Source: Botryllus schlosseri (Eukaryota). From it: 64,000 bases of DNA. Positions within the stretch are counted from its first letter, which is position 1, and each line of letters starts with the position of its first letter. The stretch covers positions 13,146,001 through 13,210,000 of the forward strand of contig CM119371.1 in NCBI GenBank assembly GCA_051294905.1, written 5' to 3'. Positions 7,997 through 39,480 of the stretch are shown here, piece after piece. The notes below the pieces were generated by a model, which saw only the letters and a list, made by a program, of their open reading frames with translations, was not told the DNA's origin and ran no database searches. The translations under genes were made by a program, and so were the position numbers.

Positions 7997-10900
7997 GCGG
8001 GTAATTATGTTAGTCGGGCGCCGTTTCGCTGCGATCCTATCGTGCAACACCTCACATTACAATTCAATACCTATGTTAACGTATAATATCATAAGAGCCT
8101 CGCGAGACGTGGAGCGAGCGAAGCGTAGCGACACGTCGCCCTTCACAACTAAGGATCCCTATCGTACGACATACAGCAATGTGTATAACAGTTATCGGGT
8201 TCGCTTTATCGGTAAGAATGAAATGCAATAGTATCTTATAAGATAAAGGTTGGTTCAAGTTAGCGTCACGTAGTGAATGAAAGAAAGCGGCAAACTTTGT
8301 ATTGCATTCATTAGCTTTTTTATAGGTTGATCCCGTCCTAGTACCGTAGCGTTCATAGATAATACGGTAAGAAATCGCCATCTCATATTACGCTTAGGAC
8401 TCGTTAAATGTGGTAGTCGTTGCGCTAGCCCTGCGATTAATTCAAACTATTATATACGTATGTAAGCAATGGATGACACGGTTGCAACTTGATTTAATGA
8501 ATACTATAGTGAAATAAACCCACCAATATCATCTGTACTCTATATACACGTAGTCCATTTACGCTTTTGGATGACTATTGGCATATTTGTCAGATGAATT
8601 GACTCGGGTCTCGTTGCAAAAATGAATATAGTTGAAGAGACTTTACTATGCGCTTCTACAATACATAAATATTCAATACTAGAATATCCATATAATAGAG
8701 TCTATCTCCAGTCCTTGAAGGGACAATACACTCGAATCAAGTCTAGGATGTTCTATCGCAAGACATACATGAATATATTTGATCCTAGGATATTCATGCA
8801 TTGCATATGACGGTTGCATCGGTATCGGGTTCGTTTCTCTGGTAACAATCAAAGTCAATGGCACGTACCGACACGTCTCCTCCCATCAAAAAGGTTGGTA
8901 ACCGGTCAATAGCCTACTCATCAAACAGTTACCGAGAACGCAATCATAGAGAATGGAAGTTGCCGAGAACGTCCACCATAGTGAATAGGCATTACAGATT
9001 ATGGACGCCACCGAGAATGGACATTCCGATAATGGACACCACCGAGAATAGACAATACATAGAATGGACATTACCAAGATTTGACACCATCGAGAAATTA
9101 CATCACAAATAACGGATATTAATGAGAATGGACATCACCGAGTATAGACATTTCCGAGAATGGCCAACGTAGGGATATGCATTGCATACTAGTAGAACAT
9201 ACATGCATCAAATTGTCAATTGACTTATACTAACAGCTTACAATGATGAGACGTGGCGGGAGCGTAGCGTAGTGACATGTCGCCATTCATCGTTAAGGAT
9301 GGGCACGTGTCAATACCGTGCAAACCATTACCTATCATGCAAATATTGAAAATTGGCATTACCGAGAATGGGCACCACCATGAATAGACAATGCTGGTTA
9401 TGGACACGATCGAGAATGGACAATACCGAGAATGATCAATACCGAGAATGGACACCACCGAGAATGGCCAATACATAGAATGGAAATTACCGAGAATTGA
9501 CACCATCGAGAAAATACATTACTAAGAACGGATATTACCGAAAATGGACATCGCCGAATATGGACATGACCGGGAATGTCCAACGCGGACAATATAAGTT
9601 AATGAGACGGGCGTGATCGATAGATTCCTATTTCAAACCGCCAATTATTTCGTATAATAATTGACATTCGGACCGAATAACACGTATCAGAACACTGCAC
9701 CTCTCACAGCACTTATCTCACAAAAAATAATTTCAAGTAGTATCGATGTTGGATAATATGCTCGTTAAGTATGAAAAATGGACTTAGTCGCAACCGGGTT
9801 TGTAATGAATCGACTAGAGACGCGATTTATTGATGACTCAAATTGACCCAAGTTATTTTCTGCAAAGACGGAACTGACTCGAATCGAGTCAATATCTTTG
9901 TTGACCCTAATTGGACTCGAGTCATTTCGCATGACTAGCCACTCATACGGCAAGACCGATGTTTGATTTCATTAATAATATCGTGATGGTGGCGCTTATC
10001 ACGGCACAGGTTTGGTGCGCCACTTCTATACTTGTTATTACAATGAATTTGCATTATCCAAATATATACAGTATAGCTCAGTACGTTTGGTATACCAACA
10101 TGTACATTAAATATACGGAGCAAGCCGCCAATGTACAAACACGAGATCAACATATTTGGTTATATAAATATTGGATGTACATGTTTTAGCTATACTATAT
10201 AAACCGTCCCGAAGATATCACGAACTGTACAACGTCATCCTAATAACAAGGGTTGGTTCAAGTTAGCATCACATAGTGAATGAAAGAAAGCGGCAAAGTT
10301 TGCGGGTAATTATATTTGTTGGGCCCCGTTACGCTGCGATCCTATCGTTCGACGCCTCACATTGCAATTCAATACCTTAGTTAACGTATAATATCATAAG
10401 AGCTTCGCGAGACGTGGAGCGAGCGAAGCGTAGCGACACGTCGCCCTTCACCAATAAGGATCCCTGTCGTACGACATACAGCAATGTATATAACGGTTAG
10501 ATAGTTATCGGGTTCGCTTTCTCGGTAAGAATGAAATGCAATGGTATATTATATAATTATAAGGGTTAGTTCAAGTTAGCAGCACGTATTGAATGAAATA
10601 AAGCGGCAAACTTTGTGTTGCTCACATTAGCTATTATATAGGTTACTCCCGTCTTAGTAGCTATTACGGTAAGACATCGCCATATCATATTACGCTTAGT
10701 AGTCGTTAATCGTGGTAGTCGTTGCGATAACCTTGCGATAAGTTTAAACTATTACATACGCATGTAAGTAGTGGATTACGCGCCTGCAACTTGATTTAAT
10801 GACTACTCTAGTGCAATACACCCACCAATACCATCTGTAATCTATATACAATTAGCCCATTTACGCTACTTTTGGATGACCGTTGTCATATTTGTCATAT

Positions 10901-11540
10901 GAAATGACTCGGGTCTCTTGGATGGACTTTACTATGCTCTTCTACAATACATAAAGACTCAATACTAGAATATCCATATATAAGAGTCTATCTCCAGTCC
11001 TTTAAGGGACTCTACACTCGAGTCAAGTTCAGCCATTTTCAAGTATGCTCTATCGCACGACATACATTAATATGAATATATTTGATGGTATGGTATTCAT
11101 GCATATGACGGTTACATAAGGATCGGGTTCGTTTATCTGGTAACAATTGAAACCAATGGCATGTAGTGACACGTCGCTTCCCATCAAAAAGGATGGTCAC
11201 CGGTCAATACCGAGAAAACCATTACCGAGTATGCAATTATAGAGAATGGACATTACAGTCCATGCTGACTGGTATGCATTGAATAATAGTAGAACACGCA
11301 TGCCTAAACAATGTCAATTGACGTATCATAACTGATTATAGTTACGAGAAGTGGTCATGGAGGTAGCGCAACGACACTACGCCCGTCATCGATACGGATG
11401 GTCACAGGTCTATATCGAGCAAAGCATTACCGATAAAGCAATTATTTAAAATGTACAATAATGAGAATGGACATTACCGATAACCGACGCCATCAAGACT
11501 GTACATTACCGATAATGCACAATATCGATAAGAGATACCA
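7997..11540 (+). repeat. Diverged direct duplication in the left arm (copy 1 ~7997-9600, copy 2 ~10302-11540)
   Basis: GCGGGTAATTAT...CGCTGCGATCCTATCGT...GTTAACGTATAATATCATAAGAGC at 7997 and 10302, collinear for more than 1 kb. Confidence 0.9.
8930..9580 (+). repeat. Degenerate ~16-bp tandem array (consensus ACCGAGAATGGACAYY)
   Basis: Many copies such as ACCGAGAATGGACATT and ACCGAGAATGGACACC at 8930-9165 and 9360-9580; remnants at 11207-11540 and ~12090. Confidence 0.85.
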
Positions 11541-12351
11541 CCAGGGTCTGGCCAAGTCAATAGGCTTTGAGTCGCATTTCAATATAACTTTCGTATTATT
11601 ATTAACTCGACTCAATTCCAGTGTATTTTAATTTAATATCGAGGCAAGTCCTAGTCATTATAATATGATTAGCGTCCCATACCACAAGTCATCGTGTTTA
11701 CTGATCCTATTCCAGTTGATGCATGGTTATCACCTTGGTGCTAACGAGTCGTTGACATTTGTTATATTATATTATTCCTCAATTTTATCAGTCCCGTCGC
11801 ATTTTCAACTATACCAGCGCTAATATACGATATCCCAATATTGTAGTTACTCTAATATACTTCAAAATTATAAATAAATGTCGGTCTCGGCCTTTGGGTA
11901 TCGCTTCCTATGACTTGTTCCGAGTCATGCGCGATGACTCTATTCCAAGTCGAGTCAATACACAGCTTCTATATATATAGATTCGAACCGAGTATTTTAC
12001 TTATTTTGAGTATATATGAATTGGAGTCAAGGAGAGTCATCATAAAATCGTGACTTGAGTCGTTGCAACCTGAACCAACTTTGAACACCACCGAGAACGG
12101 ACATTATCAAGAATTGACACAATAGATAACAAATTTTGATTTATCAATTTTACCTATTCTGACATACGATATGTGGGAACAGTATAGCTGTCAACGGCAC
12201 TTCGGTTTGATGCAATAGAGCTGCCAATCGTAACGCTAGTATAAATCCTTTGTTGATATTCAACGTTGACCTGCGCAAAATTACGAAGACACACAAAAGT
12301 ACGAAGATACAACTTTTATAAAGATATTGTTCAACATCACATTTCTAGATG

Positions 12352-38499: not shown

Positions 38500-38628
38500 A
38501 TAGAGAGAGAGAGTGAGTATCTTTATTCGTATACATTACATCAACATGACACTACAAACATGTACCAGTGAAATGCGACATGCAAGGTAGACGGGAGGCT
38601 CGATATGACAAAGTATTCAGAGCCGAGT
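38500..38628 (-). mobile_element. LINE 3'-end fragment
   Basis: (GA)n tail plus TTTATT on +; closely similar fragment at ~51022-51160. Confidence 0.65.
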
Positions 38629-39022
38629 ACGAAATTATAGATGTCGCCTGATTACGTACATAGTTAAAGAGTCTGATATTGCGACAAAGTTACGATTAAT
38701 GTGTCAATTATAATGATTACTGACATCGTATATGATCCGTGTATGATCTACAGCAGTACATCGAAGTTTCACGATTCAAGTGGCAACCAACTAGTAACGT
38801 AGTGGACAACGCGACATGGTACGACGATATCAACAACGTATACCATTGATATAAACACACGTATCTGATGCAATCCACTATGTAACATAACTATATGTTA
38901 ATTCGTCAATCAGACTATGCATCCATTTGCAGTAACAGCGTCGTCAAATACACGCTCACTCACCTCAAACGTTGTTAAAGTTTTTAACGTCAAAGAGCGA
39001 CGCTGATAGGGTGGTGGGGGGA

Positions 39023-39480
39023 AAAAAGCATAATCAAGCATGCGCTTCCTCACTTGTCAAGGGCGGCGTATCGCTTCGCTAACGCTCGCTCTACGCCTCA
39101 CTAAGCACATATGCAGTATATCGATCGTGACGCGTTGCAGCAAATGGAAAGGGTCAGCAGGACAGAAATGCTGTTCAACAAAAGCATAATCAAGCATGCG
39201 CTTCCTCACTTGTCAAGGGCGGCGTATCGCTTCGCTAACGCTCGCTCTACGCCTCACTAAGCACATATGCAGTATATCGATCGTGACGCGTTGCAACAAA
39301 TGCAACACATATGTCAAACCATTCACTCGGAGCATAATCAATACATTGCGCTTCCTCACTTGTCACGGGCGGCGTATCGCTTCGCTAACGCTCGCTCTAC
39401 GCCTCACTAAGTACATGTGCAGTATATCGATCGCCAAGCTTTGCAGCATATTGAAAAGGTCACATATGTCAGACCATTCA
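39023..39480 (-). repeat. Three tandem ~154-bp sub-terminal repeats carrying the (AGCG)n motif
   Basis: GCGCTTCCTCACTTGTCA(A/C)GGGCGGCGTATCGCTTCGCTAACGCTCGCTCTACGCCTCACTAAG at ~39042, ~39197 and ~39348. Confidence 0.95.

Follow-up and report, generated by a model that had tools for sequence, protein, structure and literature searches.

The stretch of the Botryllus schlosseri genome analyzed here (64,000 nucleotides, called the window) carries short AGCG-rich repeats on both sides of a segment of about 31 kb, which raises the question of what these repeats do and whether they belong to a single element. A first-pass annotation had read them as iterons placed in inverted orientation at the two arms of one element and had compared them with the Rep-binding element (RBE) of AAV. 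Our tentative reading is that the motif is a strand-specific signal in single-stranded DNA, probably for priming, located at both arms of one element. The repeat may be a copying signal of a mobile element not described before.

Seven strong copies were detected in the window, starting at 8104, 9248 and 10409 (+ strand) on the left and at 38230 (+), 39047, 39203 and 39353 (all -) on the right. All of them were confined to 8.1-10.5 kb or 38.2-39.4 kb. The left and right sequences quoted in the annotation were indeed found where it had placed them, and the AGCG core pattern occurred six times in the window versus 0 in 100 dinucleotide shuffles. With up to 3 mismatches allowed, a degenerate 17-nt pattern gave nine matches versus 0.10 expected. 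Profile search found no copy in the 32 kb of flanks, which are themselves full of other dispersed repeats, and a single weak partial match in the core (18599-18620; profile E 0.31).

On the left, the reference copy (8104..8155, +, 52/52 letters) is composed of a 6-bp stem (P1), two overlapping mini-hairpins and then a further hairpin, P2. The second copy (10409..10460, +) is identical in 50/52 positions and lies within a duplication of ~1 kb (7997-8957 versus 10302-11250, 81% identity). The motif is better conserved than the remainder of this duplication (50/52 versus 751/940; Fisher p 0.002, post hoc). The copy at 9248..9299 (+) is degenerate (42/52) as annotated and is followed by a 16-bp minisatellite. 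Of the degenerate copies reported near 8870 and 11160, just the 3' halves turned out to be present (profile E 7.9 and 0.035, respectively), the one at 11163..11199 (+) having its counterpart at 8864-8898 by profile and self-BLAST. Another degenerate copy at 11346..11404 (+; profile E 4e-4) displays compensatory changes in P1 and P2 and has partly lost its mini-hairpins. Just outside the first left copy, a degenerate copy on the - strand was located at 8002..8055, and its duplicate, also on the - strand, at 10304-10361; both came from profile search and self-BLAST (profile E 0.019 and 0.28 for the pair).

On the right, three tandem units on the - strand (39047-39100, 39203-39256 and 39353-39406; 54/54, 54/54 and 53/54) follow each other with periods of 156 and 150 bp. 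The right-type copy on the + strand (38229-38282, 49/54) is part of a 134-bp inverted duplicate (90%) of 39050-39183. The outermost right copy is a degenerate 5' half (39663-39705, -) at the compositional edge, in which a left-type stem start is joined to a right-type upstream flank. The inverted orientation between the arms holds for most copies and not strictly, the exceptions being the + copy at 38230 and the - copies at 8002-8055 and 10304-10361.

Each of the seven strong copies holds two overlapping DNA mini-hairpins of the form GCGN(N)AGC, and all seven occurrences of this double pattern in the 64 kb are inside motif copies. The consensus GCGNAGC or GCGNNAGC is present on one strand of the motif, which contains both GCGAAGC and GCGTTAGC, two sequences described as stable mini-hairpins (PMC13037366). 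P1 encloses both mini-hairpins and shows compensatory changes among copies. P2, located 3' of them, is a 4-bp hairpin with a 7-nt loop; 82% of its cells are paired and the loop is not conserved. Over the seven copies, 89.8% of 98 cells pair, versus 17-55% in slid controls. Four of the 14 pairs are altered on both sides, a pair count matched by 33 of 500 shuffles and based on about three independent lineages, with the structure derived from these very sequences. Nearest-neighbour folding gave nothing significant over 10 stretches (z -1.66 to +1.60). In the six intact copies, the mini-hairpins vary solely in loop letters and loop length. The variable letters coincide with loop positions and the flanking stem shows covariation, which favors a structural reading of the AGCG run over an AAV-type iteron, and the mini-hairpins look built to fold very stably in single-stranded DNA.

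The AGCG run alone is non-specific, as its degenerate core gave 37 matches in 32 viral stretches. A flanking stem of at least 4 bp was present in none of them (0/37), and a link to a viral family through this core was rejected. The 14 viral loci with the core whose ORFs were scanned included two microviruses and several loci with tailed-phage portal, terminase, capsid and integrase genes. No exact copy of the left motif was present in the viral contigs, and Rfam returned nothing on the motif, with sub-threshold miRNA-like matches on inverted repeats only.

The segment between the two clusters of motif copies contains a spliced parvovirus-NS1-like gene (16553..18094, +) with three in-frame GT-AG exons (~16553-16768, 16824-16948 and 17011-18094). 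Its product combines an SF3-type helicase with an HUH-like N-domain that lacks nicking residues. Homology search yielded 54 matches (best E 9e-46), and sequence homology places the helicase in the parvovirus NS1/Rep lineage, which makes the earlier comparison with AAV an apt one. The gene model is without the motif II His (kept in 20/22 relatives) and the motif III Tyr (kept in 21/22). In a quick tree of 24 Rep rows, the row from the window was long-branched and fell inside no starred group; the protein belongs to a separate, Pfam-negative group of parvovirus-like Reps. Relatives of the gene adjoin a capsid ORF bearing PLA2 (PF08398 in 2/4 ORFs scanned), and tblastn with 387 ORFs from 25 loci gave no capsid match. 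For the helicase, a word-indexed protein search gave 0/6708 candidates and a PDB search gave generic P-loop matches above E 0.01 only. The viral contigs held no relative of the Rep alignment or of P0004, and 6% of one RNA run (X20, individual not identified) had no reads over the Rep gene. No RNA dataset was listed as matching 7001-17000.

Another spliced gene (27860..29742, -) encodes two C2H2-like zinc-finger stretches and an integrase-like C-terminus, and its product is a probable tyrosine recombinase. It reached an Atlas feature score of 0.95 to integrase clusters, with PF00589 on 24% of one cluster; this fold assignment and that of the HUH domain draw on the sequences and on Atlas features. 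Pfam, PHROG and PDB yielded no match. One homolog was found, none among longer proteins, and the viral contigs contained no relative of the C-terminus. Cryptons (PMC3212892) resemble the segment in carrying a recombinase gene and in lacking long terminal inverted repeats. They are further marked by terminal direct repeats of 4-6 bp; no such short repeats could be placed on the segment. The segment differs from them in encoding a helicase, a word absent from the Crypton paper (PMC3212892). Multi-exon genes and C2H2 domains are also reported for the recombinases of endogenous nimaviruses (PMC10871703), whereas no nimavirus genes were recognised in the segment. A literature search, with most subscription journals and Repbase outside its scope, found no paper combining these genes; it listed only Replitrons and nimaviruses, and for the motif letters only papers with unrelated titles.

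Both genes fall within a compositionally distinct segment of ~31 kb (7960..39700), the candidate element, and the motif copies sit near both of its edges. The right edge was placed at 35,020-39,704 depending on the model, and the left edge at 7911-7963, outside the training data of the composition model. The arms are not terminal inverted repeats, because the similarity between left and right stops after ~67 bp (78%). The 150-bp flanks of the left and right motifs, with alignment scores of 39 and 25, did not surpass 200 random pairs (mean 24, sd 10, max 76). A comparison of the two edges gave no terminal repeats, inverted or direct, as the longest exact matches (10-11 bp) are at chance level. 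An inverted repeat of 32 bp (94%, 69-nt spacer; 39479..39611, z -4.6) just outside the right copies is a candidate end hairpin or small MITE, while the left edge showed no notable fold (z +1.1). The read matches listed included no empty-site joint, no clear element end and no junction on the motif. The annotated view of the two regions as arms of one element is supported in part, in that the copies cluster at the edges and are missing from the flanks; a reading of the arms as inverted repeats is not supported.

A competing explanation, which we consider somewhat unlikely, is that the repeats at left and right belong to the ends of independent rolling-circle elements of a non-autonomous, HINE/Helentron-like kind, one or two in number and of mid-copy abundance, which accumulated on either side of a repeat-rich patchwork, the hairpin being their transposition signal and the Rep and recombinase genes unrelated neighbours. 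Non-autonomous Helentrons of the HINE/DINE-1 type also have a short hairpin, 3' palindromes, internal tandem repeats and local arrays (PMC4067079). HINE/Helentron elements are further marked by subterminal inverted repeats of 12-15 bp, by T-rich insertion sites and by an autonomous Rep/Helicase partner. The copies in the window lie in local duplications, both tandem and inverted, and next to a 16-bp minisatellite of high copy number, with only ~67 bp common to left and right. Contig depth, a relative measure that here concerns the left arm, bears on both sides. The left arm was 2-14-fold deeper than the core (~2-4-fold in run X1; 362-483 versus 26-47 on single contigs in run X5); therefore arm sequence exists also without the core, in favor of independent elements. 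However, the left motif bins in X1 had depths of 231-278 versus 39,685-55,474 in neighbouring flank bins. Because the left arm is more than 100-fold below these dispersed repeats, the motif is not a high-copy MITE; that alternative, named in the annotation as the refuting case, was rejected on this depth and on the 0 copies in the 32 kb of flanks, and both results also count against HINE-like elements. The copies are low in number and restricted to two clusters, and no 12-15-bp subterminal inverted repeat recurs with them among the 25 longest pairs per region (of 104 left and 38 right). Diverged pieces of the left arm and the Rep gene were recovered from X5 (another sample) and X8 (another species label); arm and Rep pieces co-occur in three runs, and the outermost right half-copy combines left and right features, which argues against unrelated neighbours. 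If HINE-like elements were the answer, the motif would be no more than an end signal belonging to an ordinary non-autonomous repeat, and hardly of interest.

It is improbable that the AGCG run is instead a double-stranded iteron bound by the NS1-like origin-binding domain or by the recombinase zinc fingers. The parvoviral lineage of the helicase speaks for it, with an N-domain recognisable against the profile of its relatives (15.9 bits, reached by 0/500 shuffles), as do the loss of HUH catalysis with retained origin binding in polyoma- and papillomaviruses (PMC6668415) and the two tandem GAGC units, which do not vary among the six intact copies. In AAV, the RBE consists of 4-nt GAGY repeats running over 16 nt (PMC2809752). 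In the window, the phase is kept for only two GAGC units; the spacing then changes to 5 or 6 nt, and not in the same way on the left as on the right, so the phased (AGCG)n iteron originally proposed is not supported; nor would a duplex iteron need covariation of a flanking stem. As in the AAV ITR with its RBE and terminal resolution site (PMC2809752), GAGC units lie near the ends of a segment with a Rep/NS1-lineage SF3 helicase, with the same strand polarity from each end. In the ITR a nicking stem with the terminal resolution site lies beside the RBE; in the window the motif is followed by the small hairpin P2, whose loop is not conserved. Unlike the ITR, the left side is without a long terminal palindrome, and unlike AAV, the segment is ~31 kb with introns, a recombinase-like gene, a Rep without nicking residues and no capsid gene found. 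The iteron and hairpin readings are compatible and not exclusive. Least probable is that the tyrosine recombinase uses the motif for recombination or attachment, its 6-bp inverted halves serving as binding arms, or that the motif is a decayed remnant without present function. The inverted halves would fit an attachment site, as would their location close to both edges of a segment that carries an integrase-like gene. Sites of recombinases have longer arms, separated by a spacer of 6-8 bp, while the halves here are only 6 bp, 21-22 nt apart and different left versus right. Each side has numerous copies of mixed orientation, with no junction on them among the read matches listed.

In the single-stranded signal reading that we prefer, the motif would be a structure acting in cis for a large element that is low in copy number and carries a recombinase. 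Its G/A-rich strand would form a stem of 6 bp closing over GA/GC steps and two mini-hairpins, followed by a second small hairpin; since the mini-hairpins share one GC, they could alternate. With + copies mostly left and - copies mostly right, the signal would lie close to the 5' end of each strand, which fits displacement of either strand in turn. Both arms and both genes would form one unit, excised and integrated by the recombinase, and the NS1-derived protein would load and unwind without nicking, like the polyomavirus and papillomavirus initiators. The hairpin may exclude single-strand-binding protein and so mark a site of second-strand priming or helicase loading.

Mini-hairpins GCGNAGC / GCGNNAGC occur at the single-strand priming sites of phages G4, St-1 and alpha3 and of RSF1010 ssiA, GCGTTAGC being found at those of St-1 and alpha3 (PMC13037366). 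The motif shares with them the heptamer and octamer consensus, nested in a larger stem on one strand. It differs in having two overlapping mini-hairpins with a common GC and in recurring at either side of a 31-kb segment of an animal genome with introns, for which no primase is known. An SF3 helicase with an inactivated HUH domain is likewise present in polyomavirus large T and papillomavirus E1 (PMC6668415), and U94 of HHV-6 is a parvoviral Rep aboard a larger DNA element (PMC4499131). In contrast to these, the Rep of the window falls in its separate Pfam-negative group, and genes of herpes-, polyoma- or papillomaviruses were not recognised.

A twin mini-hairpin that is conserved and co-varies at both arms of an intron-containing element in an animal would suggest that an element bearing a recombinase replicates through a single-stranded step. 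The segment could represent a class, not described before, of large DNA elements of animals with integration by tyrosine recombinase, displaced-strand replication, a nick-dead initiator-helicase derived from parvoviruses and, at each end, twin mini-hairpins as priming signals, a proposal that we regard as doubtful. If true, a phage-style single-strand origin would be working in an animal nucleus, and the step from a parvovirus Rep to a polyoma/papilloma-type initiator would have been repeated independently. Having lost its nicking residues like those initiators, the Rep provides a natural setting in which to ask what a protein of this kind binds after nicking is gone, and the motif can serve as a short probe for element ends and further copies.

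The motif profile had no match in 25 parvovirus-like loci, which counts against the single-stranded signal reading. Among the 12 examined for mini-hairpins, a cluster was present in L001 only; L013, with two matches past NS1 and no cluster of three, was not counted as a second such relative. In favor of the single-stranded signal reading, in the parvovirus-like relative L001 four mini-hairpins lie within ~30 nt just outside the capsid-side ORF (0/300 shuffles), and a long hairpin is located beyond NS1.

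A total of seven strong copies of the AGCG-rich motif were detected, three on the + strand at the left (8104, 9248 and 10409), one on the + strand at the right (38230) and three on the - strand at the right (39047, 39203 and 39353). The sequences quoted in the first-pass annotation were found where it had placed them. The AGCG core occurred six times in the window and never in 100 shuffles, and a degenerate 17-nt pattern gave nine matches where 0.10 were expected. A profile built from the seven strong copies identified weaker copies in the window at 11362-11404 (+, E = 4e-4), 8055-8015 (-, E = 0.019), 39686-39656 (-, E = 0.023), 11163-11199 (+, E = 0.035) and 10361-10304 (-, E = 0.28), while the best match in the flanks of the segment reached only E = 4.7. 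A partial match inside the core, just downstream of the NS1-like gene (18620-18599, -, E = 0.31), has its own 6-bp stem and may be due to chance.

On the left, the copies belong either to a 1-kb duplication (81%) or to shorter, degenerate units that come with a 16-bp minisatellite, and the right copies form a 156/150-bp tandem triplet plus a 134-bp inverted duplicate. Because both sets lie in local duplications, the copies are not independent and represent in effect two clusters. Within the left duplication, conservation was highest in the motif (50/52 versus 751/940, p = 0.002), a comparison chosen post hoc in a region where other 60-bp bins reach 93%. The motif is a real feature. The minisatellite itself (9001-9557, 11239-11520 and 12090) is interleaved with the degenerate left copies and belongs to an abundant family, as indicated by the very high depth of its bin.

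Alignment of the copies revealed a stem of 6 bp. Its left version (GACGTG/CACGTC) and its right version (GGCGTA/TACGCC) are distinguished by two compensatory pairs. One more compensatory pair in this stem, and one in the following 4-bp hairpin, were seen in the degenerate copy at 11346. Over seven rows, 89.8% of 98 cells were paired, compared with 17-55% when the partners were slid; in 500 shuffles the covariation score was never reached, and the pair count was reached 33 times. Since the structure was drawn from these rows, which are themselves related, covariation gives modest support for the stem. Inside it, each strong copy carries two overlapping matches to GCGNAGC or GCGNNAGC. This double pattern was present in all seven strong copies and nowhere else in the 64 kb, and the density of single matches was 2.2 and 4.7 per kb for the two arms versus 0.13-0.49 elsewhere. 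In the six intact copies the varying letters fall on loop positions, and loop length varies too.

Such sequences are, according to a review (PMC13037366), DNA mini-hairpins of unusual stability that contain a sheared G-A pair; phages G4, St-1 and alpha3 have them at their priming sites, and standard thermodynamic models do not capture their stability. This limitation may explain why folding z-scores of the motif stretches were flat and otherwise lent no support to a hairpin. By analogy, the motif is a candidate single-strand mini-hairpin signal. It had previously been likened to the Rep-binding element (RBE) of AAV, which according to PMC2809752 consists of 4-nt GAGY repeats running over 16 nt next to a nicking stem, whereas the window motif has just two GAGC units in phase. 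A phased iteron of the AAV type is therefore not supported for the AGCG run, whose periodicity follows from the mini-hairpin pattern. The motif did not qualify as an AAV RBE/ITR.

Edges of the segment were located with a Markov model trained on the core versus the far flanks. The left edge was found at 7911-7963, about 140 bp outside the beginning of the left cluster. The right edge fell at 39,548-39,704 or 35,020-35,393, with a plateau between, depending on model order and training set; the right cluster is less surely part of the segment. The two arms, regarded in the first-pass annotation as arms of one element, did not behave as terminal inverted repeats: the left-right match extends over only about 67 bp (78%), and the 150-bp flanks score like random pairs. 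Further left-right matches at 9.6-9.9 kb and 11.9-12.1 kb were read as nested dispersed repeats because their bins have far higher depth. One left-right link beyond the core motif is the outermost right half-copy (39663-39705), which joins a right-type upstream flank (43 nt, 79%) to a left-type stem start. The host DNA is eukaryotic in character, with short GT-AG introns and MITE-like repeats in the flanks.

The Rep ORF (16958-18169) gave 54 matches among 1.84 billion representatives (best E = 9e-46; three evidently spurious), and its Atlas features pointed to DUF5906-type helicases. Full-length relatives have 420-660 aa and carry an SF3-type P-loop domain C-terminal to their HUH motifs; the only named one is from Styela clava. 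In 25 metagenome loci the relatives adjoin a capsid-like ORF, and two of the four such ORFs scanned contain a PLA2 domain, which identifies these relatives as parvovirus-like. In the window Rep, two upstream exons together encode the N-domain, connected in frame across GT-AG introns of 55 and 62 nt; against a profile of the corresponding domain in the relatives it scored 15.9 bits with junctions masked, and none of 500 shuffles came up to this (7.1 was their highest reported score). The motif I Trp is kept. The window Rep lacks two residues common among the 22 relatives, the His of motif II (in 20) and the Tyr of motif III (in 21), so the protein probably cannot nick. No reads fell on the Rep gene in 6% of one RNA run, and a search of the window for a capsid gene found none. 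The segment failed the tests for identity with an intact parvovirus.

The 25 loci themselves form a multi-copy parvovirus-like group with NS1 and capsid-like genes, in which many members are 68-95% similar to one another and rearrangement or duplication has affected some; their Rep group had no parvovirus Pfam match. The motif profile matched none of them. Among viral contigs, the AGCG run alone was present in 32 stretches and the flanking stem in none. One locus, L001, carries a long terminal-type hairpin beyond NS1 (about 8740-8865) at one side of the two-ORF unit, and four mini-hairpin matches within about 30 nt just outside the other large ORF (5000-5063, -; 0 of 300 shuffles), a cluster seen in no other of the 12 loci examined.

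Another spliced gene, at 27860-29742 (-), encodes two C2H2-like stretches and an integrase-like C-terminal region, the latter with an Atlas feature score of 0.95. A single homolog was found, matching two of its exons. As Pfam, PHROGs and PDB gave no recognition, its product is graded only a probable tyrosine recombinase. The segment cannot be placed among Cryptons (PMC3212892) or nimaviral elements (PMC10871703), and the literature searched contained no description of the motif or of the Rep and recombinase-like gene pair.

Contig depth was compared in four runs aligned to 6501-21500 at 85% likeness. In X1, probably the source sample, summed depth was 231-278 in the arm bins 8001-9000 and 10501-11000, 65-130 in core bins without nested repeats and 39,685-55,474 in flank bins. 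In X5, another sample, the same arm and core bins gave 135-460 and 0-211, and single contigs 362-483 (arm) versus 26-47 (core). The left motif bins thus lie more than 100-fold below the flank bins, although summed contig depth is no copy number. An unrelated dispersed MITE had been named as the case against the first-pass proposal; for the left arm, a dispersed high-copy MITE disagrees with a depth this far below that of the flank repeats. The left motif region is low- to mid-copy and commoner than the core. The clusters could also be the ends of an independent mid-copy rolling-circle repeat, judged by features of such repeats in PMC4067079 and PMC4344730, a reading we consider less likely than not. 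That the motif is a duplex iteron seems improbable, and that it is a recombinase site or else a decayed remnant more doubtful still.

Our own proposal, the likeliest of the readings though held tentatively and at a little short of an even chance, is that a single large element uses the motif while its strands are displaced. Either strand would carry the motif near its own 5' end, active in the single-stranded state; the hairpin would resist coating of the strand and mark a site of priming or helicase loading, and the recombinase would carry out excision and integration. All of these functional steps are inferred. Polyoma- and papillomavirus initiators set a precedent for combining a nick-dead HUH domain with an SF3 helicase (PMC6668415), and HHV-6 U94 sets one for a parvoviral Rep captured by a larger element (PMC4499131).

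X5 carries diverged core pieces (about 88-96%), and 12914-14475 at about 95%, overlapping a two-exon ORF pair (12352-13189, -) without Pfam or PHROG match. X8, under a different species label, carries arm pieces at 7729-8133 (15 differences in 405; 96%) and 10434-11103 and a Rep piece at 17045-17591 (about 90%); these could stem from a common insertion, from transfer or from a mixed sample. Its contig at 7729-8133 continues unbroken past the compositional edge, and the true left end could accordingly be further to the left, unless the site is a shared one. No empty site was seen among the alignments displayed for these runs.

A dispersed repeat is inserted in the core at 25418-25951 and recurs in the flank at 51196-51628 and 54835-55349; the segment has resided in the genome long enough to gather dispersed repeats. 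Recent tandem duplications were observed at 18957-20985 (1015 bp, 95%) and 35335-38199 (1430 bp, 93%). Beside the recombinase-like gene, the - strand of a 168-bp repeat (26868-27538, 3.6 copies) forms an open frame whose translation is acidic and rich in Ser/Asp. The paralogous stretches 25968-26349, 31863-33105 and 33228-33774 (-; 68-79%) resemble the short, spliced exons that a small gene family within the segment would have.
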